DNA from: Planctomycetota bacterium | GTDB taxonomy: Bacteria > Planctomycetota > UBA8108 > SXIK01 | Assembly: GCA_965223265.1 (NCBI GenBank) | Contig: OZ244999.1 | Coordinates: 8,640,001 to 8,704,000 of the forward strand | Direction of reading: 5' to 3' | Length of the DNA stretch: 64,000 nucleotides | Shown: positions 1,856 to 59,388 of the stretch, in pieces | Layout: the number at the start of each line of letters is the position of its first letter | Numbering within the stretch: position 1 is the first letter of the stretch | Made by a program: the position numbers and the translations under genes | Notes under the pieces: model-generated | Database searches by the model: none | Told to the model about the DNA's origin: nothing | The model's input: only the letters and a program-made list of their open reading frames with translations

Positions 1856-1891
1856 GCCGGATCTGGGAGTGAGACCCTGTAGGACGCTGAT

Positions 1892-3367: not shown

Positions 3368-5239
3368 TCAGCAAGAACGCCCGCCTTCGCTCTGAGGCTC
3401 CGTCGCCAAACGCCTTCCGGGGAGCGGTGGCAAGGATTCTTCGAGCACTCCTTTGGCGCGCGGCCAGAGGAGGAACGCTTCGATGAGCATCCACGCCTCG
3501 AGGATTAGCGTCAGGATGGCGACCGAGATCAGCACGTAGTTTCGCGGCTCTTTGTCGAGCCAGCCGCCGAGCTGGTAGATCATGGCCCATGCTGGCAGGA
3601 ACAGCATGAAGATCATCGGCAGTGCGGTGAACCACATCGGCAACCGACGACGCCAAAGCCAGAAAGTGATGACGAGGAACGAAAGTCCGCCGAGCAGCTG
3701 ATTCGTGGCGCCGAACATGGGCCACAGGATCAGCCCGCCCTTGCCGGCGTTCTCCAGCGACCACGCCGAACCAGGCACGGGCATCGCGGCCATGGTCCCT
3801 GCGACAACGACGGCGAAGATCGTGGCGCCGTGCTTGTTCGCCAGGCCGTTGAAAGGTGGGATGACGTGCCCGGAAACTTTGAACGTGCTGGCGATCTCTT
3901 GAATGACGTAGCGCTGCAGTCGGCAGGCCGTATCGAGCGTCGTGCCGGCGAACGAGGCGACGAGGACGCCCATGAGTGCGACCGCTACACCGCCGGGGAT
4001 TCCCGCAGCTTTGAGAAAATTCGCTGCGCCGTCGACGAATGCACCGATCTTGGCAGGTAGTCCCTGGGCCGCCCCCCAGGATGCGTATCGGTCGAGCCAC
4101 GCCTCTTGACCGACCAAGAACTCGCCGCCTTTCTCGATGCCGAGGCCGAGGCCGGCGCAACAGGCGAGAATCACGAGCGTAGCGAGAAAGCCTTCAGTGA
4201 GCATTGAGCCGTAGCCGACGACCTGCGCGTCGCTCTCGCATTTGAGCTGCTTACTCGTGGTACCGCTCGAAACCAGGCAATGAAAACCGCTGATGGCGCC
4301 GCAGGCGATGAAGATGAAGAGAAACGGAAAGATCATCGGCGCACCTTCTGGCCGCCACTGCACCACCGGAGCGACCAGCTCAAGCGATTGGCGCGCACCG
4401 CCGTCGCTGAGTGGTGCACCGCCAAGAAAGGCAGCGGCAGCCAGGCCGCCGACGACGAGTGCCAATGCTGTCAAGAGCTGAAGGCTGTTGATGAAATCGC
4501 GCGGCTGCAGCAGCGTCCACACCGGCAGCACCGAGGCAACGTAGGAGTAAATGAGAAGGGCGACCACCCAGGTAAAGGTACCCCAACCGGCCAGTGCGGC
4601 GTTGATATCTCCGAGGATGCCAACGTCGCCGTAGACGACACTTAGGTACATGAGGCCGAGCGCGACCAGCGACGGGATCGCAAGCGCTACACCCTTTCGG
4701 TGCAGCCACACGCCGATGGCTATGGCGAGTGGGATCTGCACGAGACAAGGGAAGATGCTTGCAGGATAGAGTTTGAACACCGCCGCAATCACAAGCCCGA
4801 AAATGGCGAGCACGATCGTCAGCGCCAGAAAGAGGATGAACAGAAATAAGAGCCGTACGCGTGGGTTCAGGACGCGTCCGGCGATGTCGCCGACCGTCTG
4901 GCCTCGATTGCGTAGACTGACGACCAGAGCGCCGAAATCATGCACAGCACCGATGAAGATCGAGCCGAGGAGGACCCAGAGGAGTGCCGGCAACCAGCCC
5001 CACATGACGGCCAGGGCCGGTCCGACGATCGGACCCGTCCCGGCGATGGATGTAAAGTGATGCCCGAACACGACGCTCTTCGCCGTCGGCACATAGTCGC
5101 GGTCGTCATTGAGCTCGACGCTCGGCACCGGTGCGTCCGGATCGAGCCGAAAGATCTTCCGCGCGAGCCAGCGGCCGTAGGTGTGATAGGCGACGAGGTA
5201 GAGAACAAACGCGCCGAGCGCGATCAGCAAGGTCGACAT
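3368..5239 (-). CDS. cstA: Carbon starvation protein A family transporter
   Basis: FGHHFTSIAGTGPIVGP, GAVHDFG, IACGAISGFH, TTLDTACRLQRY, WPMFGATNQL. Start moved to ATG 5239 (MSTLL), which has an AGGAG SD upstream. Confidence 0.93.
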   Translation of the reverse strand: MSTLLIALGAFVLYLVAYHTYGRWLARKIFRLDPDAPVPSVELNDDRDYVPTAKSVVFGHHFTSIAGTGPIVGPALAVMWGWLPALLWVLLGSIFIGAVHDFGALVVSLRNRGQTVGDIAGRVLNPRVRLLFLFILFLALTIVLAIFGLVIAAVFKLYPASIFPCLVQIPLAIAIGVWLHRKGVALAIPSLVALGLMYLSVVYGDVGILGDINAALAGWGTFTWVVALLIYSYVASVLPVWTLLQPRDFINSLQLLTALALVVGGLAAAAFLGGAPLSDGGARQSLELVAPVVQWRPEGAPMIFPFLFIFIACGAISGFHCLVSSGTTSKQLKCESDAQVVGYGSMLTEGFLATLVILACCAGLGLGIEKGGEFLVGQEAWLDRYASWGAAQGLPAKIGAFVDGAANFLKAAGIPGGVAVALMGVLVASFAGTTLDTACRLQRYVIQEIASTFKVSGHVIPPFNGLANKHGATIFAVVVAGTMAAMPVPGSAWSLENAGKGGLILWPMFGATNQLLGGLSFLVITFWLWRRRLPMWFTALPMIFMLFLPAWAMIYQLGGWLDKEPRNYVLISVAILTLILEAWMLIEAFLLWPRAKGVLEESLPPLPGRRLATEPQSEGGRSC

Positions 5240-5244
5240 GAAGG

Positions 5245-5314
5245 GTTCTCCTGGAACGAGGCAGAGCCCGTATCCTAACAAACGAGGCAGGCGCAGCCTA
5301 CGTTCCAGGAGAAC
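5245..5314 (-). promoter_or_regulatory. Hairpin covering the cstA ribosome-binding site
   Basis: Perfect 14-bp inverted repeat GTTCTCCTGGAACG (5245-5258) / CGTTCCAGGAGAAC (5301-5314), extendable by 4 bp across a 1-nt bulge. The mRNA 3' arm contains the SD. Confidence 0.55.
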
Positions 5315-5454
5315 AGACGGACCATTCGGTCAGAAGGGCCGGGCGCGGGCCGGCGGGAGTCGCCCATGAACTGCAGGTTCGGCTTCTTCGAAACGAACTG
5401 CCGTGTGACGCTCAGAGCCGCCAATGTGAACCGTGCGGCGACGTTTCCAGCGGC

Positions 5455-8400
5455 CTACTCACACGTGTCGAAGTCGCAGCCGAGGCTCTTGGCAGGCTCG
5501 TCATCTTGCCCACACTCGGGTGATGGGGCGTCGAGCCGTTCGCCGCCTCCGACGAACAGGTAGGTGAGCAGGAAGATCGCGTCAGAGACGTCATGATCCT
5601 CGTCGTCGTTCGCGTTGCATGCTTCGACGCACTCCGGGATGTGCTCGCCTGCGAAGAGATGGCGGAGACTGAAGATCGCGTCCGACAGATCGAGGTCACC
5701 GCTGCTGTTACAGTCACCGCGGAGGAACAACGCCTCAGCGGGGTCAACTGACTCGGGAAACGCTTTCATGCGAACGATTTCGCCAACACCTCTGTTTGAT
5801 AGCGCTAGAATCTCATCCTCAACGAGTGTGATGCCCGTGACGATGAACTCCTGGCGATCAATCGGGATTTCATAGCCGGTGAGTGATCCAGAAAGTGACA
5901 TCTCGACAATCTTGGATACCGAGGGGCACCGCGCACACCCCAAAACCTCCGCATCGAAGTCGTCGATCGTCATCGCCGTTGTCAGAAGAGTACGGCGCTT
6001 CGGCGACAGAGTCACGCCGTGATTGATCACCAGGTGATTGGGAGGCGGTAGCGGATGGGGAAATTCACGGAGAGTTCTTCCTGTGAGGTCGATTTGAGTG
6101 AAGGCGTCAGTGTTTCCTTCCATGTAGTAGAAGGTGTCCGTCAGCGGATCCCAGGTCAAACCGAGCGGCCAGCGATAGCCGAGGCCCGGCGGTGTCGTCT
6201 CTACTTCGTCGACTAGCTCACCGTCGACTGTCATGCTGGCGAGTCGAAAGAGAGCGTCCACTCCTCCACGCGAGATGATGGCATAGAGAAGGGGTTGATC
6301 GTTCTCCATCCGGATTGCGATCGTGTGAACTTGCCATCCCGGCTCGAGAGGTGCTACGAAACTGTCGAGAAAGATTAGATCCGCATCGTAGTAATAGAGC
6401 CTCGGTTCCGTTGTTCCAGCCGATAGGCGTTGAACGACGAAGAAGGTGCCGTCTGCCGGGTTGTAGGCTATCTGGCCTGGATCGACCAGAGGTTCGGTGA
6501 GTCGGCGCGTGAGCACCGCGCCGACTCCGACTGTCACCGAATCGGTCGCAAAGTCGCTCGCGATTCCCTCTCGGATGCCCTGCACCCGGTACTCGTGTCG
6601 CCCAGGCGGTGCATCTACGTCGACGTGGGCGCGGGAGCTGCCGCTCAGTTCAGCGATCTTCTCACAGCTGCGATAGACGTCGATTCGGTCGTAGGGGCCA
6701 TTGTTGACAAACGTCAGTTCGACGTTGTTCGAGTGCGTCCGCTGGCGGGCGACGAAGAGTGTCGGTCGGCGGACTTCCGGCAGCGCAGTTTCGATCGCGT
6801 GAGCTATTCTGCCGTCGAAAATGAAGAGGTCTCCACGATCGAAGTCGCCGATGAGTGCGATGTCCTGAGCGCCCGGAGAAGCAGGAGTGATCCACGATCC
6901 GGAGACGATCTCTTCTGTCTCGACGTTGAAACGGAAAATATCTGTCCTGCCGTCTGCGAAGGCACCGCTCAAGTAGAGTTCTCGCGCTCCGAGAGCATCG
7001 TTGACCGCGACACCGCTAGTGTTGAAATCCGAGGGATTCGGAAACTCAAATCGGTTGTAAGGATGAGGCAGTTCCCGAATCAAATTGCCGGCGACGTCGA
7101 GTTCGTAAAGCATACGTCGTTTTGTTTCGACGACCCAAATCGATCCTTGCCCTCCTCGGCCGCGAGCGTCGTAGGCGATGCCGCTGACGCGTCCGCGATC
7201 GACATCTTGCGCTGGGTCGGTGCCGATGCTAGGCAGTTGCGCTCCGACGCTTGACACTACGCTACCGGCATTGTTGATCGAGCCGATGCTGTGAGTTGTG
7301 GCGTTGTAGATCAGGAAACGCTCAGGAATACCCGACGGACTGAGGCCGCCAATCGAGTCCCCTTCAGCCAGAAAGAAAGAGCTGATTTCGCTGCGGCTGA
7401 TTTCCTGCAGATCGCGGCCAAGGAAGATTAGGCTCTGCCCAGTTGCGATGACCAATTCGCCGTCGTCGCTCGAGGTCATGAACCCCAAATGCCCGAGAGT
7501 TTCACTGGATGCGATGACTTGGCCGGCTCCGACGATCACGGTGCACTCGCGCGTCTGCGTCGAGTTGAAGCCTGAATAGGCTCTGACCGCTAGCTTGTGC
7601 TCTCCATCCGGGAGAGACAGCGACCAGCTTGTCGCGTCGCCTGGCACGGTAGCTAGCACCTCGCAGCCGCGGACGATTTCAATGGAATCGTACGTCTCGC
7701 TGGTAAGCCACTTGAGTTCGACGGCCGGACCAACCGCGCTACACTGAAGATCGCGAAGCGGCAAGAAGCTCGGTTCACCGCTTTCGAACACAAGGAATCG
7801 ACTGCCGACGACCGTCGTGCATACGTACGCGTCGAAGATCTCTCCGCTCTCTGGGTGGCGAAATGGCCGACTCAGTAGGCTGTTGACTTCACCTCCTGCT
7901 TGCCGCAAGGAGATGGAGGTTTCCGCGATCTCGCCGAGCGCGTTCAGTCGTAGAATCGCATAGCGGTCGTCGCTGCTCCCGAGGAGATGGAAGCCGCTCA
8001 GCTCGCCTTCTTTTTTGATGGGTTCGACGTCATTGAATCGAACGCGAGATTCTGCACCGAGAACAGCTTCGATTTCAGAGCGATCGGGGAAGGATCGTAG
8101 CGTCACGCCGTCCAGCGTCGTTTCCAACACGGACGCCCCTTCGTTCATGACGACGTAGATCGACCCGTTCCCGTCGTTCCCTCCCGCATCGAAGGCCAGC
8201 CCCATGGCGTCTCGCGACTCGAAGTCAATAATGCGGTCGGTCGGCGCGCCGTCCTTGGTGATCTCATGGAGCTCGCCGCTTAGCGCGTCCATGACGAGAA
8301 GTGTCCCGTCGATGCTGTTGATCGTGATGCCGTACGCGAACGATGCGACAGCGTTCTCGAAGGGAATCGGCACCGTTTTGATCACGGTGGTCAGCTCCCG

Positions 8401-9468
8401 GTTGTACTGATAGACCTCGAATTCGGTAGCGCTAGTGACCCAAAAGGTGTCGTCGACATCGTCGTGTGCCATGTCGACCGGTCCTACTGCTTCGGAGGAT
8501 AGGTGTGCCACAAGTTGTCCGGGCTCGCCCGTAAGAACTGGCGAGACGGCAGCGAGACCGAGCGAAAGTGTCGCTGCCAAGAGGCGACGGGATCGTTCCA
8601 TTGCTCTTCCTTTCGGTTCAGAGGCCTGCTGTGTATCAACGGAACTCCGCGTTGACGATGATCCTTGGGCGCGCTGTTGATCAGCACGAAGGGAGACGTC
8701 GTCAGGGGGGCGACTCGGTCCTGCGAGCAAAAGCAGAACGGTCGCTACCGAGACGATTACATACGGGGACGACTTCGCGATGATCTGCGGAGCAGAATGC
8801 CAGAGCCCTGCCGCGTCGTTTTCGGGCGCTGGAGCGAGGGGGCCTCGTTCAACAACACGTGCCTCGAGGTCCCTCGACGGAGCACCGGGCATCTCCCTGG
8901 CGCCGACGAGCGCCAATTCTGTGACAACGATCGCGGTTCCCGCGCCGCCGACAAGGCGCTGCAGCTGATTCTTGGCTCGGTGAACTCGACTACCAACCGT
9001 TTTGACAGGCACACCGGTGATCGATGCGATCTCTTGGTAAGAGAGTCCCTCGAACATACGGAGGTGAATCGTGAGACGGAATTCCTCCGGCAGCTGATCG
9101 ATGCAGTCGTAGAGAAGTTGGCTTTCCTCCTGCGAAAGCACCGTCTCCGCTGTACTGGGCTCAACGAGGTCGCGCTCCCGCCCAGCACGGTTCTCATGAA
9201 AAGACCTGGTCTTTTCCCGCCGCAGGATTGATCGAGCGACGTTGAGAACTGTCTTCAACACAAAGGCGCGCGGGTTCTTGACGTTGGCCGACTTGGTTGT
9301 GGCACGAGAAAGTCTCAAGAAACTCTCCTGAACGACATCTTCCGCCATGTCTTCAGACGGGACGATGCGTCGAGCCATGCGCGTCACAGTCTCGATGTAA
9401 GCGCTGACGAAGGCACTGAATCGAACACGGTCACGTCGATCGAGATAAGAGATGAACGGGTCACTCAC
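5455..9468 (-). CDS. ECF sigma-70 factor fused to a TM segment, a large exported repeat region (probable beta-propellers plus Ig/Fn3-like units) and a C-terminal dockerin-like domain
   Basis: Sigma2 MAEDVVQESFLRL; sigma4 LPEEFRLTIHLRMFEGLSYQEIASITGVPVKTVGSRVHRAK; TM YVIVSVATVLLLLAG; repeated units YDSIEIVR...VIVGAG and YDRIDVYR...VTVGVG; C-terminal FLRGDCNSSGDLDLSDAIFSLRHLF...ACNANDD...DVSDAIFLL. Confidence 0.85.
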   Translation of the reverse strand: MSDPFISYLDRRDRVRFSAFVSAYIETVTRMARRIVPSEDMAEDVVQESFLRLSRATTKSANVKNPRAFVLKTVLNVARSILRREKTRSFHENRAGRERDLVEPSTAETVLSQEESQLLYDCIDQLPEEFRLTIHLRMFEGLSYQEIASITGVPVKTVGSRVHRAKNQLQRLVGGAGTAIVVTELALVGAREMPGAPSRDLEARVVERGPLAPAPENDAAGLWHSAPQIIAKSSPYVIVSVATVLLLLAGPSRPPDDVSLRADQQRAQGSSSTRSSVDTQQASEPKGRAMERSRRLLAATLSLGLAAVSPVLTGEPGQLVAHLSSEAVGPVDMAHDDVDDTFWVTSATEFEVYQYNRELTTVIKTVPIPFENAVASFAYGITINSIDGTLLVMDALSGELHEITKDGAPTDRIIDFESRDAMGLAFDAGGNDGNGSIYVVMNEGASVLETTLDGVTLRSFPDRSEIEAVLGAESRVRFNDVEPIKKEGELSGFHLLGSSDDRYAILRLNALGEIAETSISLRQAGGEVNSLLSRPFRHPESGEIFDAYVCTTVVGSRFLVFESGEPSFLPLRDLQCSAVGPAVELKWLTSETYDSIEIVRGCEVLATVPGDATSWSLSLPDGEHKLAVRAYSGFNSTQTRECTVIVGAGQVIASSETLGHLGFMTSSDDGELVIATGQSLIFLGRDLQEISRSEISSFFLAEGDSIGGLSPSGIPERFLIYNATTHSIGSINNAGSVVSSVGAQLPSIGTDPAQDVDRGRVSGIAYDARGRGGQGSIWVVETKRRMLYELDVAGNLIRELPHPYNRFEFPNPSDFNTSGVAVNDALGARELYLSGAFADGRTDIFRFNVETEEIVSGSWITPASPGAQDIALIGDFDRGDLFIFDGRIAHAIETALPEVRRPTLFVARQRTHSNNVELTFVNNGPYDRIDVYRSCEKIAELSGSSRAHVDVDAPPGRHEYRVQGIREGIASDFATDSVTVGVGAVLTRRLTEPLVDPGQIAYNPADGTFFVVQRLSAGTTEPRLYYYDADLIFLDSFVAPLEPGWQVHTIAIRMENDQPLLYAIISRGGVDALFRLASMTVDGELVDEVETTPPGLGYRWPLGLTWDPLTDTFYYMEGNTDAFTQIDLTGRTLREFPHPLPPPNHLVINHGVTLSPKRRTLLTTAMTIDDFDAEVLGCARCPSVSKIVEMSLSGSLTGYEIPIDRQEFIVTGITLVEDEILALSNRGVGEIVRMKAFPESVDPAEALFLRGDCNSSGDLDLSDAIFSLRHLFAGEHIPECVEACNANDDEDHDVSDAIFLLTYLFVGGGERLDAPSPECGQDDEPAKSLGCDFDTCE

Positions 9469-9543
9469 GGATGATTCCCCTGAGCTCTATTTTCTTCCCC
9501 AGAAATTGCTCGCGAGCATCCGAAGCGTGTCGCAAGTCGATGG

Positions 9544-12039
9544 CTAGAAACAGGTGGAGTCGCGGCAGATCCGAAGTCGATCTGGCGTTGGATCTTCGCC
9601 ACAACGAAAGAGGTCGGCGCTAAACGGGCGATCGACACCAGCGAAGAGAAAGTTCAAGATCGCGATCGCGTCAGCCGCGTTGACGATTCCATCGTCGTTG
9701 AAGTCTGCAGCGTCGGGGCATGCGGGTGCACGGCCCCCACGAAAGAGATGGTTCAGAACGAAGACTGCATCAGAGATGTCAGGCTTTCCGCCGGAGTCTG
9801 CGTCGCCGCGGCGAAAGAGCGGCCCCGGACTCGTTCCACGAATTCCGTGAAGCACTGAAATCGAGCGTGACCCGAAGTCTGCGGTTACAGCGTCGACGAC
9901 GTCGTCGCCATCGAAGAACCCGATCGCAATCGAACGCGGTGAGATTCCCACCGGGCGCTTTTCGATCTCGGCGGCGAAACCCCGCTCCAGCCCGCGGGCG
10001 ATCAATACGGCATCGATACCGCCAGCAAGAACGTCAAGGAAACCATCGCCGTCGACGTCTGCGACGGCCAGTGGATTCAGCTCGGTGCCGAAGTCGAGCT
10101 CGCGCGTCGCTGCTGGGTCAGGCTCGTCCGCGAGAGGGTCGTAGATCACGACGACCTTCGTGCGCTGGACCGCGACGAGGTCGTCACTGCCGCTACCATC
10201 GAGGTCAGCCAACGCGATGCTCGCCGCTGCGCGGAGCGCAGAGAGATTGTGAGCTCTCTCAAGGCCGCCGTTGCCGTCACCTCGTAAGATGGAGATCCCA
10301 CTCGATATCGCCGCCGCAGCGTCGAATGCGCCGTCACCGTCGGCGTCGCCGACGGCCAGGGAGATGGGTGGCTCCCCGATCGCGATCCGCGTCTTGGGCC
10401 CCATCTCGTGAATGCCTCGCTCTGAGAGAGGTCGAAGCACGAGTACCAGTTGGTCGGAGGCGAGGTCGCCAATCAACAGGTCGCTGTGCGCGTCGCTGTC
10501 GAAATCAGCGGCGGCGATCAGAGACGGAAGTGGGCTGCCGGGCACGGCGATCCACTGCTCCTCCACGGCTAGGGGATTACCTATGATGACTTCGCCGTGA
10601 GAGAGGTCACTCACTGCGATTTCGTCGACGCCGTCGCCGTCGAAATCGCCCGCGACCATTTCTTGAAACGCTCGACCCTGAAAGTGCGTCTCGTTCACGT
10701 CGTTTGACCCAGACGTCGCCAGGAGCGCTGTGGCACTGAGCGCGACGAATCTGTGCTCGCTTTTGTCTCTTTCTGCAAGGACCAACAAGGCGCGCGGCGG
10801 CTGTTTGAGCGGGACGACCGTGCGCGTCGCTAAGCGGCCGTTCGAAAGACCAGGTATGACACCGAGTGTTTCGAGCGTTCGCCATGTCGCCACCGTGTCC
10901 ACAATTCCATCGCGGTCCACGTCGTGACGAGACAGACTGGCCACCTCGTCGTCCAAGAAGATGTCACGCGGAGTGAACGAACCCGTGCCGCTGCCGAGAT
11001 GAACGCGCACGCCGTGATTGCCGAATCGCTGCAGTGGACTGATGATGTCGATCGTTCCGTTCGCGTCAAAATCATCGACGAGCAAAAAACCGGTGAAGAA
11101 GCCGGCCTTCGCTCCTGACGACGCGCCGACCGTCGCGACGTTGAACCCACGAGCCTCGCCGTTGTTCGTCAGCAGTAAGAGAGTGTCGTCACCTGTCAGC
11201 GTGACCAGATCGGGATGGCCATCGCGATTGAAATCTTCGGCGGCGACGATGCGCGGTACGACGGCAAAGCCGAGATCTGATCTCTCGGCGAGGTGGAACG
11301 TGCCGTCACCGCGGCCGTGAAAGCGACTGATGAAACCGTGATTATTGCTCTCTTCGCGGTGCGCCACGGCGACGTCGAGCAGGCCGTCGCTGTCGAAGTC
11401 ATGCAGCGCGAGCGAGTGGGGGTTGTCGCCGACCGAGACGCGCTCGACTCGACGAAGGCTCCCGCGACCGTTTCCCAGCAAGACGTCCATTGTGCTCGAA
11501 GCCAGGTTTGTGACGACGGCATCGAGCCAGCCGTCGCGATTGAAGTCGCCGAGCTCAATGAGTCTGGGGCTGGTGCCGACGTCGGTCGCTCCTGAAACCT
11601 CAAAGCTCCCATCACCGCGATTGAGGAGCGTCGTCACGTTGTCGGAGCCGCTGTTGACGACCAGCAAATCCGGTGAGCCATCGCTGTCCAAGTCGCCGCT
11701 TGCAACGCTGATCGGTCCAAGCCCAACGCCGTAGTCCACCGGGACTCCGAACAGTTTCTGCGAGGCGCCCAGGAACACCCGCGTCGCACCAGCCGCCTCC
11801 TGGGTTACGGCGACGTCGAGCCAGCCGTCGAGGTTAAAGTCATCCACGACGTGCGTAGCAGCCGGTTCGGTCAGCTCGAAAGACTGCGTTCCCTGGAAGA
11901 GATTCTGCGCTTGAGTCTTGCCGACGCGACCGCAGATGATGCCAAGAACGATGAGCGATGCCAGGGTCACGAAACAACCGTGCCGCTCAGTTCGACGATA
12001 GAGTGTGCGCCGATCCGACGCGAGGAAGCGACGGAGCAT
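9544..12039 (-). CDS. Exported FG-GAP/VCBS-repeat protein with C-terminal dockerin-like domain
   Basis: Many DxDxDGxxD repeats (GDLDSDGSPDL, GDFNRDGWLDA, ADVDGDGFLDV); hydrophobic N-terminus; C-terminal FRRGDADSGGKPDISDAVFVLNHLF. Start set to ATG 12039 behind a GGAGG SD. Confidence 0.88.
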   Translation of the reverse strand: MLRRFLASDRRTLYRRTERHGCFVTLASLIVLGIICGRVGKTQAQNLFQGTQSFELTEPAATHVVDDFNLDGWLDVAVTQEAAGATRVFLGASQKLFGVPVDYGVGLGPISVASGDLDSDGSPDLLVVNSGSDNVTTLLNRGDGSFEVSGATDVGTSPRLIELGDFNRDGWLDAVVTNLASSTMDVLLGNGRGSLRRVERVSVGDNPHSLALHDFDSDGLLDVAVAHREESNNHGFISRFHGRGDGTFHLAERSDLGFAVVPRIVAAEDFNRDGHPDLVTLTGDDTLLLLTNNGEARGFNVATVGASSGAKAGFFTGFLLVDDFDANGTIDIISPLQRFGNHGVRVHLGSGTGSFTPRDIFLDDEVASLSRHDVDRDGIVDTVATWRTLETLGVIPGLSNGRLATRTVVPLKQPPRALLVLAERDKSEHRFVALSATALLATSGSNDVNETHFQGRAFQEMVAGDFDGDGVDEIAVSDLSHGEVIIGNPLAVEEQWIAVPGSPLPSLIAAADFDSDAHSDLLIGDLASDQLVLVLRPLSERGIHEMGPKTRIAIGEPPISLAVGDADGDGAFDAAAAISSGISILRGDGNGGLERAHNLSALRAAASIALADLDGSGSDDLVAVQRTKVVVIYDPLADEPDPAATRELDFGTELNPLAVADVDGDGFLDVLAGGIDAVLIARGLERGFAAEIEKRPVGISPRSIAIGFFDGDDVVDAVTADFGSRSISVLHGIRGTSPGPLFRRGDADSGGKPDISDAVFVLNHLFRGGRAPACPDAADFNDDGIVNAADAIAILNFLFAGVDRPFSADLFRCGEDPTPDRLRICRDSTCF

Positions 12040-12457
12040 AGTTCCTCCCGATGGTTTGCACCCGGCGCTCGACACGTTCCGCAGGTCAACTCACCGCGCC
12101 CATCTTATAGCTGGATCCGCACCGACGCTATCTGCGCTCGTGAAACCGTGCGATCGACGAAGCCGATCGAATGCAGCCGGGTTCACTAAAGAGACTCGCG
12201 GCGGCCGAAGTTTCTTCCCGAGAAGTCAGGTGAGAGGAGCGAATGCGCCGAAAGCGACTCGCTGTCGTGAGTCCCTCGGGTGCGGCGTGCGTCTGTCAGC
12301 AGCGCTGTTGGGCTTCGTCGACGATTCGCACTAAGCTCTAGGGTCGATCCTTTCCCGCACGGGTTCGGGGATCGGACCCGCGGAGAGAGGATCGATGAGG
12401 TTTCTGAGCGCCGAAACTCCAGACGGCTCAATTTGCGTCAGTCGTTAGTTTCGCAGC

Positions 12458-15400
12458 TTACTCGTCCGGCCTAATCACGATCGTTGGCTCACCATTCTCG
12501 TTGCGATTCTTGGCAAGATCGTGGAGCTGCGTGAGCGCTTGGTCGAGCGCGGCGACCGCGATGTCGCCGGGAATCGTGTCTCCACCAAAGAAGTACTCCC
12601 ATACGAATGCCGCCGCCGCCCCCGGCGACGAAAGCACCGCGGCTACCACGGGGTCGTCGTTGTCGACGATCTTCAGAAGTGCGGTCGCCGCGCCTTGCCA
12701 GGTCAGTGTCACGACGAAGCCGTAGTAGGGGATTGCCGCAACCGCACCGTCGACGGCTGCGGCGCCTGCTTGCTCGAAGTGAAGGCGTCGCGTCAGCGGG
12801 TTGTTCGCGCCAGCCGCTTGGTGGAGATAGTAGCCCGCCTCGATGGCGCCGACGGCCAGGGCCGCTACGGCGCCGGCTTTGGTCGGACGCCCGCGCATGG
12901 CGGCGCGGAGTTCGTACACCTCACCACCGAGGTCGATGAGAGTCGTTGCGAGCATGACGATCGCCTTCACCTCATCGCCATCTCGGTACGCGATCCAGGC
13001 TTCGCGCGCGCCGATGACGGCTTTGCCGGCAGCTGCTACTCCCTCGAGCTTGTCCATGATCCTAAGGCGTCGTCGCGAGCCGTGTAAGATTTCGGAATCG
13101 TTCGTGTCCGCCACCACTTCGACGCGCGTCGTCACCCGCCGGGTCTCGAATCGGGCCGGCTCGTCGAAGCTGTTTTTGATCATGACGTCGACGTCTTCGT
13201 ACTCGCTAATTCGATAGACGTACCCACCGCTTCCGTCGCGCAGTTTGTCGACTTCAACGATCGGCGTCGGCCGGGGCCACTCGTGCCACAGGCGCTCGTA
13301 GCGCTGCTTTGCGGTCGCCGTCCACTCGATGAACTGGGCGGTCGTGTCGGGCACCGCGTCCCACTTTGCCGCCAGGCTTCCGGTGGAATCGAGCTGATTG
13401 AGCCAGTGACTGGTCGCTTGCTTGAACGTGCGCACGTCATTGCCGTTGCCGTCAATGGTCTCGACGTACCACGTGCAGTCTCCGGTCTCGGTGCAGCTGA
13501 TTTGTTCCTCGATGATTTGGGCGACGTCGCCGTCCCGTGTTGAGACGATCAGGATCGCGTCGACAGCCTCCGTAGTGAGGGCAGTCGGGTCGACGCTGGC
13601 GGTTGGGTTATCGAGTCGGTTGACGACGTGAACTGTGGTTCCGTCTTCACTCATCCAGTTGCCATTCGGCAGCGTGCCGAGCTGCTCTGGGAGGACGCTG
13701 AGAAGGTGGTCGATGTCGCGATCCATTTTCGCCACCAGACTGGTCGCGGCGATGGGGATTTCATGGACGAAAGCTGCAACCGAGAGGTCGCTAGGATCAA
13801 TGGACGTCCGCTGGTTGATTCCACCGCTGACGTAGACCCAAAGCGGTGACAGGTAGAGCCAAGCCGTGCGAGCGTCACCGTCGGCGGTTGTGGCTTCCAT
13901 CGTCGCTTCGCTCGCTGGAAGGCGGATCTTCACCTCGTAGGCGTTGTCGCCGATCTCGCTCGCCAAGGCGACTGCGGTGTGGAGGTGATCGCCGTTCAGC
14001 ATGTCGCTACTAGCGAAGAAACTCGCCTGAAACGCGGGTCGTTTGAAGGTGGCGCCAGTGCGGAAGCCAAGATCGGCCTCGGGGTCGATTGCGAACTGAA
14101 TCACATACGTGTTTTCGGTGTCGAGCGCGACGCGAACCGGTGCGAAGTGAAACCGGTAGGGTGTCCCAAAGGCATCTTCAATTTCAGTGGCAGTCACATT
14201 CGTCAATCGGACGTTGTATTTGTGAAATCGATTGGTGTAGTCGATGCGGTATTCCTTCTGGTGAAAGCAGTCGTAGTTGGTGTAGTACGGTGCCGCCGCA
14301 CTCGAGGTCCAGCTGCCATCCCTCGTTGCGGTGTAGGCGGAGTACGGCGTGTCCGATGAAATGAGATCGTTGATCTCGGCGACGATTTTTGACTCCGTGA
14401 CGTCGCTTTCCTGGACGGCATCGTTGTCCGAGGACCTCCAATCGACACCCTCGTAGCCGCACGTGATGGTGTAGTCGTGCTTGACCACCTCGGCTTCACC
14501 GGTGAGTGAGCCGACGAGATAGGTCTGTTGAAAGTTCAGGAATCCCGCCGGGTGAACGGTCTCCCAAAACCCTGATTCGTCAGCGGCGGTGTAGCGCACT
14601 GTCGGCGATCGGTCGACTCCATCGAGGACACCGTCACCGTCGCTGTCTGGATCGGTGGGGTCCGTGCCTAGGGCGAGCTCTCGACCGTCGAAGGCGCCGT
14701 CGTCGTCGCTGTCGCGATCGAGGATGTTCACGTCGCCGTCGCCGTCGCTATCGGCGAAGGGGTCCGTCCAGCCGTTCAGTTCGTCGAGGTCAGCCCAACC
14801 GTCCAAGTCGGAATCATCAAGGCGCGGATTGAGCCCGTACGATTCTTCGTCGAGGTCGCTGATGCCGTCAGCATCGTCATCGTCGTCGCTGTCCGCGTTG
14901 TCGCCTGTGCCATCTGCATCCGTGTCCCACCACTCGTTCGGATCGTCGGGGAAGGCGTCTGGTGAATTGCCATTGGCATTGTCGCCGTAGCCATCACCGT
15001 CACGGTCGTCGTGCTGGGTCGCGTCTAGTTGAAAAGCATCTTCGGTGTCGAGGAAGCCATCGCCATCGTCGTCGTCATCTTCGTGATTGACGATGCCGTC
15101 GCCATCCGTGTCCCCGATGAGAACGGCGATCACAGTGTTGGAGCGTGCCTCGATGAGTTCTCCGGTTTGGGGGTGTCGGTAAGTGACTTCGAGATAGACC
15201 GGGAGGTCACCTTCGCGTTGATAGAGGTGGATGACGTCAGCAGCGACTTCAGCCGTCTCTCCGTCGCCGAAGTGCCAGATCGCGCTCTCGATCGGCCAAT
15301 CGACGCCCCAACGCACGCGGCATGTCACCACGGCGGGAGGCTCGATGAAGTCGTTCTCCACCCAAATTCGCGGCGCTGTGCCATCGACACTGAAGTTGCT

Positions 15401-17659
15401 GTCGTAGTTGAACCAGCCGCCGTTGACACTGTTCTGTCCGAGTGCCCAGCCGCTAGCGTAGACGATGCGGTAGGCGATGTCGTTCTCCGTGAGGACGCCA
15501 TGGCTCGAGAGAGTCGCCCATTCGAAGACCACCGTACGCACGGCGCCGCTGACGTGACTTTCGCCCCCGAGCGTGCCGATGTATTCGTTGCCGCTGTCCG
15601 CAATGTCTGGCTGCTTGTAGAAACCCGCGTTCTTATCCCAAACGAGAAGACCACGGTGTCGCGCCGGGTCGTCGGAGCCGTCGCGAAGGTTAATCCAAAT
15701 GAGAACCTGTTGGACGGCTTGGTCGGGGTCGGGGAATCGGAGGCTAAACTGTTGCCTGTCGATGGAGTCGCTCGAAATGACCTCTTGTGCGTGCCAGGCG
15801 TCGACGCCGTTAGGAAACTCGCTCACGTTGACCGTGACACGGTCGGTCGTGCGCTCGCCGTCGTCATCGACCGCGACGAGTGAGACCGTATAGCGCCCGG
15901 AGGTCGGAAAGTACGTCTCGAGGGTCTGGATTCCCTCAAAGCTGCGCCCATCACCAAGCTCCCAGCGTCTGAGGACGAGGTGCCCGTCGTCGTCACGCAG
16001 CGTCGCTGGCAGCGAGAAGAGCTCTCCCTGAGCGACGTGGATCTCGTCCGCCGCGTCGATCGTCGCGATGGGTGGCTCGTTGGGGCCGGGAACACCAACA
16101 CCAAAGGTGGCACGGGCGAAGCCGTAGGACGTTCGGCCTTCCGCGCCGTATGAGATGGGGCGGAAGTGGACGGTGTGGAGCCGGTCGTTGGCGAACGAGC
16201 CGCTGACCTTTTTCCAACCGCCGCCGCAGCCGGTGTACTCGTCGGTGGCCGTCGTTTCGAACGTGCCGTTACCGTCGAGGTCGAACTCCCACGCATTCGC
16301 ATTCCCCGTTCCGCTCCTGGCATAGAGGGTGAGAGCGGCTGAGCCGCCGGCGCCGTTCGCGATGCTCGCACCATCGAGGAGCGCGCAGTCTTTGTCTGGG
16401 TTGACGTAGAAAATACCCGACGCCAGTGGGCAATCGCCGCCTTGCAGCACCACGGTCGTCGACCATTCGTCTGTGGCCCCGTCCTCGTCGGCAACCATGA
16501 TGCGGACGTCGTAGTTGCCGCAGCCGGGGTAGTCGTGCACCCAGACCTTGCGACCGGCGTAGTTGCACTGGGCGTTGGCGGCGAACGTACCGTCGCCGAA
16601 GTCGATGGAATAGGAAACAACTTCGCCGTCCGGATCAGTGGCCGAGACGAAGAATCCCATGGTGTATGCAGTCTTTGGGCGGCCCGTACACCAATTCGTC
16701 GCCAGAGGCACCTGGGTGCCAGTGCGATGGTCCGTGAAAATCCGAGGCGGTTGATTCTCACTGACGGTGATCGTTGTGACTTCGGTTGAATCGGCACCGT
16801 CAGTGTCAGTAACGCGTAGGCCGATGCTGAAGGAGCCGAGAACGAGATCGTTGAGACGGAGTGTGGGGCCTGTCGCGTCGTCGTAGCCGCCGTCGGCGTC
16901 GAGGTCCCACTCGTAGAGGGCGATGTCATCGCCTGGATCGCTCGACGACGAGGCGTCGAGAGCGAGATCTTCACCTTCTTTGACCGAGTACGGTCCACCC
17001 GCGTCGGCGGTCGGTGCGACGTTGTGCAAAGTGATCGTCGCCGTGTCAGTGTCGATGCCGAGGCGTGCATCGATGACTTTCAGACCGACGGTGACCCGTC
17101 CCGATTCATTGCTCGTGTAGAGCACGGTCGGACCGAAGCCATCGTCGTACTCGCCATCACCATCCAGGTCCCAGCGAAACGAGAGCGCGTCGCCGTCCGG
17201 ATCGCTCGACGCGGACCCATCGAGAATGATCCCACCACCTTCGTCGATCTGGTAAGTTCCACCAGCATCCGCAACGGGATCCTCGTTCTCTGCGATGATC
17301 GCTTCGCAGCGCTCGAACGAAGTGCAGCTCAGAAAGTCAGCGGTCGGGTCCTCGCCACAGTTAGGAAACGGTGCGGGTGGCTCCGAATCGCCGACGAAGA
17401 GATAGAGCAGGGTGTACATCGGGTCGGAGATGTCCATGGTCCCGTCGTCGTTGCTGTCGCCCGCGGCGAGACAGGTAGGCTCAGTTCCGCCCTCGGTGAA
17501 CAGATACTCCAAACTGAAGATGGCGTCGGAGATGTCGACTGCCCCATCGACGTTGACGTCGCTGCGAACGAACTGACTCTGCGCGCCCATGTCGGTGCCA
17601 ACTAAGAAGAGGACGAGAAGCGTGAGCGTGAAGGCGAATCGGTGTAGACTGGTGGCCAT
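12458..17659 (-). CDS. Large exported protein: N-terminal dockerin-like domain, several PKD domains, Ca-binding (TSP3-like) repeats, unknown C-terminal region with hydrophobic helices
   Basis: Signal peptide MATSLHRFAFTLTLLVLFLVG; FVRSDVNVDGAVDISDAIFSLEYLF; PKD motifs PVADAGG...LDGSASSDPDGD...WDLDGDG and WHFGDG; DxDGDG repeats. Start ATG 17659 behind GGGGGA. Confidence 0.85.
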   Translation of the reverse strand: MATSLHRFAFTLTLLVLFLVGTDMGAQSQFVRSDVNVDGAVDISDAIFSLEYLFTEGGTEPTCLAAGDSNDDGTMDISDPMYTLLYLFVGDSEPPAPFPNCGEDPTADFLSCTSFERCEAIIAENEDPVADAGGTYQIDEGGGIILDGSASSDPDGDALSFRWDLDGDGEYDDGFGPTVLYTSNESGRVTVGLKVIDARLGIDTDTATITLHNVAPTADAGGPYSVKEGEDLALDASSSSDPGDDIALYEWDLDADGGYDDATGPTLRLNDLVLGSFSIGLRVTDTDGADSTEVTTITVSENQPPRIFTDHRTGTQVPLATNWCTGRPKTAYTMGFFVSATDPDGEVVSYSIDFGDGTFAANAQCNYAGRKVWVHDYPGCGNYDVRIMVADEDGATDEWSTTVVLQGGDCPLASGIFYVNPDKDCALLDGASIANGAGGSAALTLYARSGTGNANAWEFDLDGNGTFETTATDEYTGCGGGWKKVSGSFANDRLHTVHFRPISYGAEGRTSYGFARATFGVGVPGPNEPPIATIDAADEIHVAQGELFSLPATLRDDDGHLVLRRWELGDGRSFEGIQTLETYFPTSGRYTVSLVAVDDDGERTTDRVTVNVSEFPNGVDAWHAQEVISSDSIDRQQFSLRFPDPDQAVQQVLIWINLRDGSDDPARHRGLLVWDKNAGFYKQPDIADSGNEYIGTLGGESHVSGAVRTVVFEWATLSSHGVLTENDIAYRIVYASGWALGQNSVNGGWFNYDSNFSVDGTAPRIWVENDFIEPPAVVTCRVRWGVDWPIESAIWHFGDGETAEVAADVIHLYQREGDLPVYLEVTYRHPQTGELIEARSNTVIAVLIGDTDGDGIVNHEDDDDDGDGFLDTEDAFQLDATQHDDRDGDGYGDNANGNSPDAFPDDPNEWWDTDADGTGDNADSDDDDDADGISDLDEESYGLNPRLDDSDLDGWADLDELNGWTDPFADSDGDGDVNILDRDSDDDGAFDGRELALGTDPTDPDSDGDGVLDGVDRSPTVRYTAADESGFWETVHPAGFLNFQQTYLVGSLTGEAEVVKHDYTITCGYEGVDWRSSDNDAVQESDVTESKIVAEINDLISSDTPYSAYTATRDGSWTSSAAAPYYTNYDCFHQKEYRIDYTNRFHKYNVRLTNVTATEIEDAFGTPYRFHFAPVRVALDTENTYVIQFAIDPEADLGFRTGATFKRPAFQASFFASSDMLNGDHLHTAVALASEIGDNAYEVKIRLPASEATMEATTADGDARTAWLYLSPLWVYVSGGINQRTSIDPSDLSVAAFVHEIPIAATSLVAKMDRDIDHLLSVLPEQLGTLPNGNWMSEDGTTVHVVNRLDNPTASVDPTALTTEAVDAILIVSTRDGDVAQIIEEQISCTETGDCTWYVETIDGNGNDVRTFKQATSHWLNQLDSTGSLAAKWDAVPDTTAQFIEWTATAKQRYERLWHEWPRPTPIVEVDKLRDGSGGYVYRISEYEDVDVMIKNSFDEPARFETRRVTTRVEVVADTNDSEILHGSRRRLRIMDKLEGVAAAGKAVIGAREAWIAYRDGDEVKAIVMLATTLIDLGGEVYELRAAMRGRPTKAGAVAALAVGAIEAGYYLHQAAGANNPLTRRLHFEQAGAAAVDGAVAAIPYYGFVVTLTWQGAATALLKIVDNDDPVVAAVLSSPGAAAAFVWEYFFGGDTIPGDIAVAALDQALTQLHDLAKNRNENGEPTIVIRPDE

Positions 17660-17801
17660 TGTTCGTTCCCCCGTGCTGTCATGTGCGTTTGTGCTGATAC
17701 GGGATGGAACGTCATCGAGGAGAGATTCTGCCCCTGGCGTTCGCCGCTCGCGTTTTCCCCACGACGAACGATCCACACAGCTGTAGGAGTTAGAACAGCT
17801 T

Positions 17802-18380: not shown

Positions 18381-18413
18381 TCGAACAACTGCTGCACCGC
18401 GAAGGAGCTTACC

Positions 18414-38000: not shown

Positions 38001-38744
38001 TTACGGCACGCTTGCGGTTTTCGCTGGCGGCACGCTGGAATGGACGTGATTCGGTTTCCGCTCGCGCTCGAGGTCGATGACGTTTCGCAAGATGCTCTCG
38101 GCGATGTAGCGACCGTACGTTGTTCGGATCGTGTCGTGAAACGACGCTGTTGCGTCGGGGTCGTACGGAATGAGAAAGGGCGCTGCGAGGAGTGACGAAC
38201 CACCGTACCCGGGGACCCACCAACCGGTCGACGCCCAAAAGCCGCGTTCGAAGTCGCAGTGCCGGATGTCAAACGTCGTCGCGATCGTATCGCTGCGCGC
38301 GGCCGAACGGTCCTGTGGGTTGTAAATCGTATATGACGTCGGCACATCGCAGCGGTACACGTATCCGTTCCAGGCGTGACTGAAGAGAAGAAAGCCGGGG
38401 AACGTGATCAAGAAGTTCCATCCGGAGCCGTGAAACTCCGGCTGCGGGTCGAGTGCAAGGACGACGTCAGGCGTGAACTCTGCGTCGCTCACCTCCCACC
38501 GCCATCCCGTGCGAACTCGATCGACTGCAGGGTGGTTGCGTAGAGCTTCGACGACATGCTGAACAAATGGCGACTGATTGTCCTCGGGGTCGCGGCGTAG
38601 CAACGCAACGTTGTGGCGCCGCCCGAGCGTGTCGCCGGGGGAAGAGTGATAGTCGTCGAGGTTTTTCACCTGCATGGAATGCGTGCAGGCAACGAGAAAA
38701 AGCGGGGCGATGAGTGGGAGCGGGGCGAAGTTGCGCGTCTTCAT
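38001..38744 (-). CDS. Putative lipoprotein
   Basis: ATG 38744 behind GGAGG; lipobox-like LFLVAC. The (SA)n extension upstream in the ORF track is repeat DNA. Confidence 0.75.
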   Translation of the reverse strand: MKTRNFAPLPLIAPLFLVACTHSMQVKNLDDYHSSPGDTLGRRHNVALLRRDPEDNQSPFVQHVVEALRNHPAVDRVRTGWRWEVSDAEFTPDVVLALDPQPEFHGSGWNFLITFPGFLLFSHAWNGYVYRCDVPTSYTIYNPQDRSAARSDTIATTFDIRHCDFERGFWASTGWWVPGYGGSSLLAAPFLIPYDPDATASFHDTIRTTYGRYIAESILRNVIDLERERKPNHVHSSVPPAKTASVP

Positions 38745-38846
38745 GGAGCGACCTCCGTGCAGGATTCGTGGATGCTGGGGACTCGAAGAGGTGTCGACCG
38801 AAGGTCTGAACGGCAAAGGCACGTTGGGTGTGACAGAATTCTTTTT

Positions 38847-39096
38847 GGCAGAGGCAGAGGCGGAGGCAGAGGCGGAGGCAGAGGCGGAGGCAGAGGCGGA
38901 GGCAGAGGCGGAGGCAGAGGCGGAGGCAGAGGCGGAGGCAGACGGAGGCAGAGACACAGATAGGGAGTCAGAAGCGGACGCAGACTCAGAGTGCGCCCAC
39001 GCTCACGCCCACGCCCACGCCCACGCCCACGCCCACGCCCACGCCCACGCCCACGCTCACGCTCACGCTCACGCTCACGCCCACGCCCACGCCCAC
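38847..39096. repeat. Two-part hexamer repeat element 2
   Basis: 16 x GGC(A/G)GA (38847-38942), degenerate NNC(A/G)GA linker, junction GAGTGC (38989-38994), then 17 x GC(C/T)CAC (38995-39096). Confidence 0.95.
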
Positions 39097-55567: not shown

Positions 55568-55625
55568 GTCGTGACTACGCAGTGTCGTGACTATGCAGTG
55601 TCGTGACTACGCAGTGTCGTGACTA
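55568..55625. repeat. 16-bp tandem repeat, about 3.6 copies
   Basis: GTCGTGACTA(C/T)GCAGT x3 plus GTCGTGACTA; the last partial unit contains the lipoprotein stop codon. Confidence 0.9.
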
Positions 55626-56270
55626 GTATTGGATAGGCTCTTCGTTCTCTTCAAGCCTGACCGACGCTGGCGCCGGGCTACCGATCTCGTCCTCGGACAA
55701 CGTCAGGTCGCGAATATCGGCTTCTGGCGAGACCGCAGCCGGGGGGGCGATCTCGGGCTGCGCGCCAGGCTCCGCCGCGGGCGCCTTCAGACTGTTGATG
55801 TCCGCGATCGAGAAGCTTTCGGTGCCGCGAGGGCCGATTCGAGAGCGAATCTCGTTGAACGACTTCCCGTAGGCGAAGTCGAATTTACGAGAGATCGTCA
55901 CCTCAGCGGTTTCCTCGCCTTTCACGAACTGATAGTTGTGCGTCTCGCCTTCCGTCTTGTACGCACCCACCAGTCGCCAACCGTTTTTCTTCATCGCACC
56001 CACGAACCTCGGTCCGACGTCCGACATGTGACCACCGCCGCGGTAGTACCCGACCCAGCTGCGAAAGTGTCCGCCTTCACCGACTGCCGGCTCATACGAT
56101 TCACCACGGACGAATTCGAAATTGGGTAGGAGCGGTACATCGCTTTGCTCCACGCCTTCGGCCATTTCGACGCCCGAGGGCGGCGAGACGCACCCCGCGA
56201 TGGCGGCCAAACCGACACTGATCACACCAACTCCGATCATTGCGACACAACGCGAGTACGTTCTCTTCAT
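55623..56270 (-). CDS. Putative lipoprotein
   Basis: ATG 56270 behind GGAGAGGA; lipobox-like AIAGC. Confidence 0.75.
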   Translation of the reverse strand: MKRTYSRCVAMIGVGVISVGLAAIAGCVSPPSGVEMAEGVEQSDVPLLPNFEFVRGESYEPAVGEGGHFRSWVGYYRGGGHMSDVGPRFVGAMKKNGWRLVGAYKTEGETHNYQFVKGEETAEVTISRKFDFAYGKSFNEIRSRIGPRGTESFSIADINSLKAPAAEPGAQPEIAPPAAVSPEADIRDLTLSEDEIGSPAPASVRLEENEEPIQY

Positions 56271-56350
56271 AGCAATGTCCTCTCCAACTTCCTTTTCTCG
56301 CCGCCAGGCCGGAGGACCGTCGCGGCTTTCACGTCCGAGCGCGGCATTGT

Positions 56351-56416
56351 AGCCGTTGAAAAAACCGGGGAGTGCGAATGCCCCCGTATCGGCTCGAAGC
56401 ACTTTTCAACAGGCTA
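56351..56416 (+). mobile_element. MITE-like element, copy D (short)
   Basis: AGCCGTTGAAAAAACC...TCGGCTCGAAGCACTTTTCAACAGGCT; this 27-nt right end is identical to that of copy E. Confidence 0.6.
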
Positions 56417-58822: not shown

Positions 58823-59388
58823 GAGCAGGTTGCGGCGCCGGGAACCGTGACGATTCCGGTTGCAGGGCAGGGCACCCGGCAGCGTGTGGTGGCGCACATC
58901 GACATCTTGTTTCAGCGTCCTAGATACAGGTTTTTGATCGGTTCGTCCAAGAACCAGTCTGTCCGCGACAGGCGGTGAGCTCGATTCCAGTGGTCTTCTC
59001 AGTCCGACGCGGTCGATTTGGAGTTATTCGAACCGTTTCGTGGCGGCGATCGGGATTCGACTGTGAAAAATATGTTTGATTTTAGGGTGTTCGTCTGCTA
59101 TGACGCGTTCTCGGTTTTGAGTCACGGTTGGCTTCTGCCGTCTCCGGGTGGGCGTCGTTAACTTTATCGGCGTCAATACCTTACGGGTTAGCGTAGTTTG
59201 GCGAAGTGACCGGTGGCGCCTTTGTAGTTGAAAACAATCTGCAGACTGTCGTGTCTTTCGACGTCGTCCGCCCAGGGCGACAGCGACAGACTGAAGGTGG
59301 ACGGCGGCTCTTTTCGTAACTCGCCTAAAACGTTGGCGTTACGATTTAAGCGGCGGTTCTTAGATCAACCTACCCGATCCCTACATTA

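Follow-up and report, generated by a model that had tools for sequence, protein, structure and literature searches.

The stretch of DNA analysed here (64,000 nucleotides, positions 8,640,001 to 8,704,000 of contig OZ244999.1 of a Planctomycetota bacterium, called the window below) carries on its minus strand a gene in which an extracytoplasmic function (ECF) sigma factor runs into an exported protein that appears to retain a start codon and signal peptide of its own. According to the listing of open reading frames (ORFs), 5455..9468 on the minus strand is a single open frame that encodes 1337 aa, starting at a GTG at 9468 and ending with a stop codon at 5455-5457. From the N to the C terminus it comprises the ECF sigma factor (residues 1-175), one transmembrane (TM) helix, a spacer of 37 codons, the string AAAGGAAGAGCA-ATG, a Sec-type signal peptide, and the exported body. 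The frame is stop-free from 9489 to beyond 8300, and the linker contains stops in both of the other frames (8759 and 8747 in one; 8851, 8704, 8683, 8638, and 8620 in the other). The GTG is preceded at 9475..9481 by a Shine-Dalgarno (SD)-like AGGGGAA with a pairing energy of -6.5 kcal/mol, and the N-terminus that it sets aligns with the N-termini of six other fused homologues, which together with the window's protein make up the seven fusions compared below. All features of this ORF lie on the minus strand and are given in window coordinates.

In the N-terminal part, Sigma-70 region 2 (residues 21-86; 9211..9408) matched Pfam PF04542 (Sigma70_r2) at E = 4.5e-9 and region 4 (residues 117-169; 8962..9120) matched PF08281 (Sigma70_r4_2) at E = 7.7e-15, and NCBIfam TIGR02937 (sigma70-ECF) scored 79.5 bits against a cut-off of 42.9. 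Regions 2 and 4 occur without regions 1 or 3, the composition of an ECF (group 4) sigma factor. An AlphaFold2 (AF2) model of residues 1-340, built on seven sequences, gave predicted local distance difference test (pLDDT) values of 84-98 over the sigma core (residues 1-170; >90 in region 2 and 84-89 in region 4), except for the linker between the two regions at about 101-120 (60-71); from residue 178 onward pLDDT stays under 50. Helices were modelled at 155-191, 235-249, and 290-305. In the hydropathy profile, a weak segment at 172-190 is followed by a clear one, TM1, at about 229-252 and then, at about 295-314, by the core of the signal peptide. TM1 (8713..8784) reaches a Kyte-Doolittle mean of 2.03 over 17 residues, contains the AF2 helix at 235-249, and has a counterpart in all seven fusions, in most of which its N-terminal flank is more positive than its C-terminal flank (sequences read by eye). 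An anti-sigma-like fold after sigma region 4 was considered and is unsupported, because the model shows no folded domain between that region and TM1. Helix-destabilising residues in TM segments matter for site-2 proteases, and Pro or Gly stands within TM1 or at its edge in each of the seven fusions, a sequence-level hint, and the only pointer, to possible site-1/site-2 proteolysis.

The 37 codons that follow TM1 (residues 253-289; 8602..8712) are open in frame and lack a coding signature. Under a codon-position model trained on 29 other likely genes of the window, the frame-0 margin was +0.28 in the sigma part and +0.35 in the mature part of the exported protein, with G+C contents at third codon positions (GC3) of 0.63 and 0.67, compared to -0.206 and 0.46 in the spacer. 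When 377 non-overlapping windows of 37 codons from the same 29 genes served as a leave-one-out control, a margin as low as that of the spacer occurred once (1/377) and a GC3 as low did not occur (0/377). By this comparison the spacer looks like non-coding DNA, open by chance or kept open, and it is probably a former intergenic region.

Immediately after the spacer the coding strand reads GAACCGAAAGGAAGAGCA ATG GAA CGA TCC, with the A of the ATG (8599..8601) at 8601. The initial annotation had described this ATG as an in-frame codon 290 followed by a Sec-type signal peptide, and both descriptions stand. The open frame and the coordinates ((9468-8601)/3 = 289) put it at codon 290, and the putative signal peptide (residues 290-314; 8527..8601) has an n-region charge of +2, an uncharged run of 19 residues with a core of about 13, and Gly at -1 in the L-T-G that precedes E-P-G-Q. 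The AF2 helix at 290-305 lies within it, and the same layout is found in all seven fusions and in the stand-alone relatives described below. The codons that lead to the proposed second start are AAA GGA AGA GCA ATG, in which the SD-like AAAGGAAGAG (8604..8613; translated as K-G-R) pairs at -5.9 kcal/mol. This is close to the energy at the ORF's own GTG start and lies in the middle of the range (+0.3 to -11.3) spanned by 16 ATGs that are likely true starts.

As a control we scored all 193 internal in-frame ATGs in 36 long ORFs of the window, with pairing calculated against a canonical anti-SD 9-mer. Pairing as good as that at 8601 was found at 15 of the 193, a signal-peptide-like continuation after six, and both features at four. 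The other three of these four sites (17659, 56270, and 38744) are codons 40, 45, and 72 of over-extended ORFs and are evidently where these genes for exported proteins truly begin. In this genome, an SD and an ATG followed by a signal peptide thus mark a gene start, and 8601 is the sole such site that lies deep within a gene.

To place the exported part among its relatives, residues 290-1337 were used as the query in an exhaustive HMMER scan of 1.84 billion cluster representatives. Of the 18,954 matches at E<=1e-3, 101 reached E<=1e-30; the weaker matches mostly covered no more than the C-terminal module or the Ig-like modules. Full-length relatives share 31-38% identity with the query and fall into two length classes. 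Members of the stand-alone class (1059-1103 aa; P0006, P0008, P0009, P0011-16, P0018, P0019, P0021, P0023, and P0025) open with Met and a signal peptide, followed by a conserved (E/D/A)PGD motif. Members of the fusion class (1278-1343 aa) match the query from about position 258-310 onward; they comprise P0005, P0007, P0010, P0017, P0020, and P0031, which with P0003 make up the set of seven. BLASTP of residues 1-288 against the 152 fetched proteins matched exactly seven, i.e., the database copy of the window's protein and the same six fusions, whose sigma cores are 43-47% identical to the window's; all seven align over their full length. P0074, with an N-terminal offset of 101 residues, was examined as a further fusion and rejected as a fragment with an over-extended ORF. 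An alignment of 32 family members shows conservation of 90% or more for the Met that opens the C-terminal part, which places the beginning of the stand-alone proteins there, and judged by these alignments the C-terminal part is the entire pre-protein of a mostly stand-alone family.

The initial annotation had read this ORF as an ECF sigma factor joined through a TM helix to an exported part; this fusion is real and recurs in six other cluster representatives. This recurrence also bears on the prosaic explanation that a missed stop or a frameshift in the assembly has joined two ordinary genes. The non-coding look of 8602-8712 is the one observation that such an artefact would account for, whereas the same architecture and frame continuity are found in six proteins that are 33-38% identical, so the fusion is not peculiar to the window's record and an assembly error is very unlikely.

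Other searches added little to this picture. A word-index protein search, which says little on absence, returned for the C-terminal part only the query itself and a weak peptidase C25 match, and for a profile of the six fusions only itself and P0154. For the sigma part it returned five ordinary ECF sigma factors (172-201 aa, 31-36% identity) without the tail, and no stand-alone sigma-TM relative was found within its limited sensitivity. A scan of genome contigs on generic sigma motifs returned 80 loci, none of which carries the C-terminal domain (tblastn); tblastn against plasmids gave nine records with generic sigma genes, again none with the C-terminal domain; and a search of the ESM Atlas gave no usable match.

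Comparison of the junction across the seven fusions showed which of its elements have been kept. Each fusion has one TM-length hydrophobic segment after sigma region 4 (best 17-residue Kyte-Doolittle mean 1.71-2.65), followed by a linker of 30-59 aa to the signal-peptide edge; these linkers are mutually unalignable and contain a single Met in 311 residues. At the edge itself one alignment column holds Met in six fusions and Val in P0017. Beyond it, in all seven, the n-region has a net charge of +1 to +6, the stretch free of charged residues spans 13-22 positions, and (E/D)PG is directly preceded by a small residue at -1 (five times A, once each G and C). The h-regions of the fusions comprise 11-14 hydrophobic residues (read by eye), a length typical of signal peptides rather than of TM helices. 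Gly occurs at -3 or -4 from the Met or Val in every fusion and is followed by R, D, G, E, or K; GGN with a purine-initial codon 9-12 nt before a start is the expected look of a translated SD of the GGAG type. From the frequency of Gly in the linkers (29 of 311 residues), such a Gly is expected by chance at 0.178 per protein and at 5.6e-6 for seven independent lineages. At the protein level, the succession of SD-like codons, in-frame start, and signal peptide after the TM helix thus recurs in seven of seven fusions, and the proposal in the initial annotation that K-G-R-A is a translated SD gains comparative support from the conserved Gly, a support confined to the amino acid level.

A phylogeny of the exported part only was built from 33 rows, namely the seven fusions, 16 proteins of the stand-alone kind, and an outgroup of 10 more distant family members, all chosen from the 152 proteins as full-length or nearly full-length matches, with fragments and multi-module proteins left out. 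The tree groups all seven fusions with P0006, P0008, P0015, P0021, and P0022 in a single starred clade of 12 members, with terminal branches of about 0.8-1.6 changes per column. Within this clade the maximum-likelihood (ML) tree needs three state changes and the starred branches force only one, and a topology in which the fusions are monophyletic is not rejected (delta lnL 0.72, approximately unbiased test p-AU 0.471; 17 rows, LG+G4). A single old fusion is compatible with these data.

We propose that the ORF is an evolutionarily kept fusion with two nested products, a tethered sigma-sensor and an internally initiated secreted twin, and we assign this reading a probability of roughly 0.55. Use of the internal start at 8601, as judged from the comparison of the homologues, is by itself somewhat better than an even bet. 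It is favoured because a neutral Met, its upstream Gly, and the n-, h-, and c-region layout should not all survive in seven of seven fusions on long branches. The retention of Met next to linkers that are otherwise unalignable points the same way, as the long form has no recognised demand for a Met at that position.

Several observations weigh against this proposal. The case for initiation at 8601 is drawn from conservation and SD context, the conservation of the SD in the homologues is deduced from amino acids alone, and the full independence of the seven fusion lineages assumed in the chance estimate may be doubtful. Local RNA folding at 8601 is unexceptional (-9.3 versus a mean of -12.15, sd 3.79), with 22% of the windows of the ORF as weakly folded, and a promoter and terminator scan of 5200-12600 found one promoter-like site against 1.4 expected and none close to 8601. 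The h-regions are less hydrophobic in the seven fusions than in 19 stand-alone relatives (best 10-residue mean 2.01 versus 2.67, Mann-Whitney p = 0.0006), also when the fusions are compared with the five stand-alone members of their own clade (p = 0.0025), and this could reflect the partial decay of a relic. No anti-sigma or zinc-finger domain was detected between sigma region 4 and TM1, with no Pfam family at E<=1 in residues 170-289. Finally, the ML trees interleave one or two stand-alone proteins (P0008 and P0021) with the fusions, and secondary splitting or several separate fusions are possible. Around the internal start we also noted an AAC-N16-CGTC string resembling an ECF promoter in the spacer (8654-8678, minus strand), about 55-77 nt upstream of the ATG; found by hand search, it is at chance level as an ECF-type promoter, with about 0.4 matches expected per region by a rough estimate. 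No family was matched in an Rfam scan of 5000-18500.

The weaker h-region is central to the strongest competitor of the two-product proposal, according to which only the full-length protein is made, and the internal Met, the SD-like codons, and the signal peptide are an inheritance that now serves as periplasmic linker. Relaxed selection predicts such a drop in hydrophobicity, including that seen within the clade; the RNA-structure and promoter scans add no support for a start at 8601; and SD-like context at in-frame ATGs is common by chance, as the 15 of 193 sites in the control show. A neutral remnant should, however, decay like the unalignable linker that surrounds it, whereas Met or Val at the edge, Gly at -3 or -4, a positive n-region, the length of the uncharged run, and a small -1 residue are all kept in seven of seven fusions on long branches. 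Between fusions and stand-alone proteins neither the charge of the n-region (2.7 versus 2.7) nor the length of the uncharged run (17.1 versus 17.0) has changed. We consider such a relic unlikely, at less than half the weight of the two-product proposal, and read the weaker h-region as tuning, which would permit passage through the translocon in the long form and preserve an export signal in the short form.

As to the origin of the fusion, the most likely route is gene sequestration, in which the sigma-TM frame ran through an intergenic spacer into an in-frame downstream gene. Consistent with a sequestered gene, a spacer that resembles non-coding DNA is followed here by a complete in-frame gene whose stand-alone homologues start at the aligned Met. 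The non-coding look of the spacer would also suit a series of recent accidents, in which two separate genes are ancestral, the stop codon was lost independently in several lineages, and the long product has no selected function, and the interleaving of P0008 and P0021 with the fusions agrees with such a history. The N-terminal region of P0008 (37 residues, polar, very basic with a net charge of +9, and with no Met at the usual signal-peptide edge) resembles a translated linker, which fits too, and this protein may descend from a fusion by splitting or by truncation at the 5' end. Against repeated accidents, 7 of the 12 clade members are fused and the unalignable linker is open and in frame in each of them, when a 37-codon spacer would be both open and in the right frame in only about 10% of cases per lineage (a rough estimate). 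Moreover, the search with the sigma part, of limited sensitivity, returned no sigma-TM relative that stands alone, and its best small sigma factors are the tail-less proteins with 31-36% identity. Repeated accidental read-through is thus an improbable history, and we retain capture of the downstream gene, followed by long conservation, as the preferred one.

If both starts are used, the two products would take different routes through the membrane. Initiation at the GTG at 9468 would yield a type II membrane protein with a cytoplasmic sigma factor, TM1 as signal anchor, and the ectodomain outside; in this long form the linker and the old signal peptide would also lie outside, the weakened core of the latter traversing the translocon without integrating. 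Signal-peptide cores of about 11-14 hydrophobic residues are too short for a second span, and the basic residues that precede them disfavour a stop-transfer function. By analogy with IutY and ECF52-type proteins, the sigma factor would probably be held inactive at the membrane and be freed by regulated proteolysis. Initiation at the ATG at 8601 would yield an ordinary pre-protein that is exported by Sec and cleaved before E-P-G, releasing a free copy of the same ectodomain.

The topology of the long form also decides how far the signal peptide could act in cis, with its core spanning the membrane N-in/C-out and signal peptidase I cutting before E-P-G, which would leave a sigma stub in the membrane and set the ectodomain free. 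The small -1 residue ahead of (E/D)PG in seven of seven fusions would suit such a cleavage, as would the segment at 172-190, which in the window's protein is as hydrophobic as a TM helix (Kyte-Doolittle mean 1.76 over 19 residues) and could give a three-span topology with a cytoplasmic linker, in agreement with the positive charges before the signal peptide. However, the equivalent of 172-190 is short or polar in the alignment of the other six fusions and so is not conserved as a TM segment, and AF2 extends the last helix of sigma region 4 through it. If TM1 is the only span, the linker that leads from it to the signal peptide should lie in the periplasm, and signal peptidase would meet the h-region in the wrong orientation, which makes the cleavage of the full-length protein that the initial annotation had offered as an alternative topologically unlikely. 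The conserved Met and the Gly at -3 or -4 would in addition be left unexplained. We regard cleavage in cis as improbable, though marginally less so than the repeated accidents discussed above, and return to two starts as the better account of the junction.

What the short product might do is a matter of speculation, including the decoy, ligand, or feedback roles that were suggested for it in the initial annotation. Tentatively, and with distinctly less confidence than we place in the two products themselves, we suggest a one-gene, two-product feedback circuit, in which the cell would secrete a dockerin-like triple-propeller protein and carry the same ectodomain on a tethered ECF sigma factor. 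The tethered copy would sense the fate of its free twin outside the cell and so set how far the sigma factor is freed by proteolysis and, with it, how the neighbouring genes with dockerin-like modules are expressed. That fate might be sensed, e.g., through competition for a docking site or ligand, or through co-assembly with free copies. The signal peptide would then be a compromise, weakened but intact, that balances translocation of the long form against export signalling in the short form.

Origin of planctomycete ECF extensions by sequestration is already in print. According to Pinto & da Fonseca 2020 (PMC7671368), C-terminal extensions may arise by 'gene sequestration', and in scenario (d) the core reads through a former intergenic region into an in-frame downstream gene. 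The window's gene resembles that scenario in having a sigma2-sigma4 core, a formerly non-coding stretch, and an in-frame gene, with homologues of the extension existing separately. The cases presented there are recent, lineage-specific duplications with unrelated extensions, whereas here seven proteins that have diverged deeply share one fusion, which has a TM helix and in which the captured gene still has its start codon, its SD-like codons, and its signal peptide. The text of that paper makes no mention of 'signal peptide', 'start codon', 'Shine', or 'internal', and a literature search of main texts found no description of a fusion that keeps the initiation and export signals of the captured gene. 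What is unusual in the present family is its deep conservation, its TM helix, and the preservation of these signals.

The tethered form has counterparts elsewhere. IutY of Pseudomonas putida (ECF243) and the actinobacterial ECF48/52/53 proteins such as SCO4117 are described in PMC8999054 as sigma/anti-sigma hybrids that proteolysis activates, with an ECF core, a C-terminal TM segment, and an extracytoplasmic sensing domain. The window's protein follows this plan, with a single TM helix after sigma region 4 and a C-terminal domain homologous to signal-peptide-bearing proteins, and tethering with regulated intramembrane proteolysis is the likely logic in both. According to that review, the IutY and ECF52 extensions hold an anti-sigma or zinc-finger domain before the TM segment, and none was detected in the window's protein; its ectodomain, by prediction from the sequence, moreover amounts to the whole of a secreted pre-protein, start and signal peptide included. 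In-frame internal starts in bacteria are likewise known to give N-terminal proteoforms (PMC13515050), and the window's gene would share with them the generation from one ORF of two products that differ in N-terminus and localisation. In the localisation examples seen in that source a short N-terminal targeting signal is lost or gained, whereas the short form proposed here would gain a Sec signal peptide and shed a sigma-TM module of 289 residues. We infer that the window's gene combines a sequestered, membrane-spanning ECF extension with an N-terminal proteoform from an internal start.

ECF sigma factors with fused extensions are viewed as the one-component systems of the sigma world, and extracytoplasmic signalling to a sigma factor that lacks an anti-sigma factor is poorly understood in planctomycetes, which encode very many ECF sigma factors. 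The fusion family offers a testable case in which a captured gene for a secreted protein was turned into the sensor of a tethered sigma factor and apparently can still be expressed separately. If both products are made, this would be a conserved bacterial nested gene whose products, a membrane regulator and a secreted protein, act in different compartments, with an ectodomain that can be read off the gene sequence; and gene callers that take the longest ORF would hide the secreted proteoforms of such genes. If only the long form is made, the family would still be a dated example of a gene-sequestration fusion becoming fixed.

The exported body (5764..8514) consists of three beta-propeller-like modules (about 7783-8514, 6790-7518, and 5764-6516) separated by two immunoglobulin (Ig)/fibronectin type III (FN3)-like modules (about 7531-7755 and 6529-6762), with approximate boundaries. 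The AF2 model of residues 290-1337, built on 32 sequences, has a mean pLDDT of 84.2 and a predicted template modelling score (pTM) of 0.77 and shows an all-beta body with a small helical C-terminal module. Foldseek against the PDB returned generic multi-propeller ectodomains (LRP2, Sevenless/ROS1, DDB1) at a TM-score of at most 0.2. The Pfam families SdiA-regulated and SGL score 18-20 bits in the window's copy, under their cut-offs of 21 and 26.3; among 21 family members, 13 match SdiA-regulated and 12 SGL at E<=0.01.

The C-terminal module (5458..5739) is flanked by Cys and dockerin-like, with three short helices in AF2. The initial annotation had called the protein dockerin-tagged, which holds at the level of the family, Dockerin_1 (PF00404) being matched in 11 of the 21 members (best E = 3.7e-6). 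The label is weak for the window's own tail: the C-terminal 101 aa have no Dockerin_1 match at E<=1, the best phmmer match, to the type I dockerin 3ul4_B, is at E = 0.3, and the second repeat of the module appears degenerate by eye. The window's module is 47% and 42% identical to modules in two upstream genes, one for a PKD-repeat protein with a signal peptide (12458..17659, minus strand, with 17659 rather than 17776 as its likely true start; module near the N-terminus, 17303-17584) and the other, which lies between it and the sigma fusion, for an FG-GAP repeat protein (9544..12075, minus strand; module C-terminal, 9550-9819). A dockerin-like module is thus common to three consecutive genes on the same strand (PKD, FG-GAP, and sigma fusion; 42-47% mutual identity), which may form one regulon or assembly system.

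Clostridial SigI/RsgI controls dockerin-bearing cellulosome genes. The likeness to the present locus lies in the link between an alternative sigma factor, extracellular sensing, and secreted proteins that carry dockerins, here in the form of the three consecutive genes. The sigma family differs, and SigI/RsgI has a separate anti-sigma sensor with carbohydrate-binding modules, with no fusion and no nested start.

Elsewhere in the window, three ORFs on the minus strand have longest-ORF starts that are over-extended (12458..17776 by 39 codons, 38001..38957 by 71, and 55623..56402 by 44), and the ATGs at 17659, 38744, and 56270, which have strong SD sequences and signal peptides, are the likely true starts of those genes. 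A second ECF sigma factor of ordinary length (233 aa; 58196-58897, minus strand) is followed by an ORF of 220 aa (57496-58158, minus strand) that matches no Pfam family and is a candidate anti-sigma factor. A PSCyt2/PSD1 (DUF1549/DUF1553) protein and then a DUF1501 protein are encoded at 53-3358 (plus strand), a pair which we take to be typical of planctomycetes and which makes the window planctomycete-like. A large protein at 39421-43041 (plus strand) combines Lamin Tail Domain, Fn3-associated/CHB_HEX_C, and CotH kinase domains.

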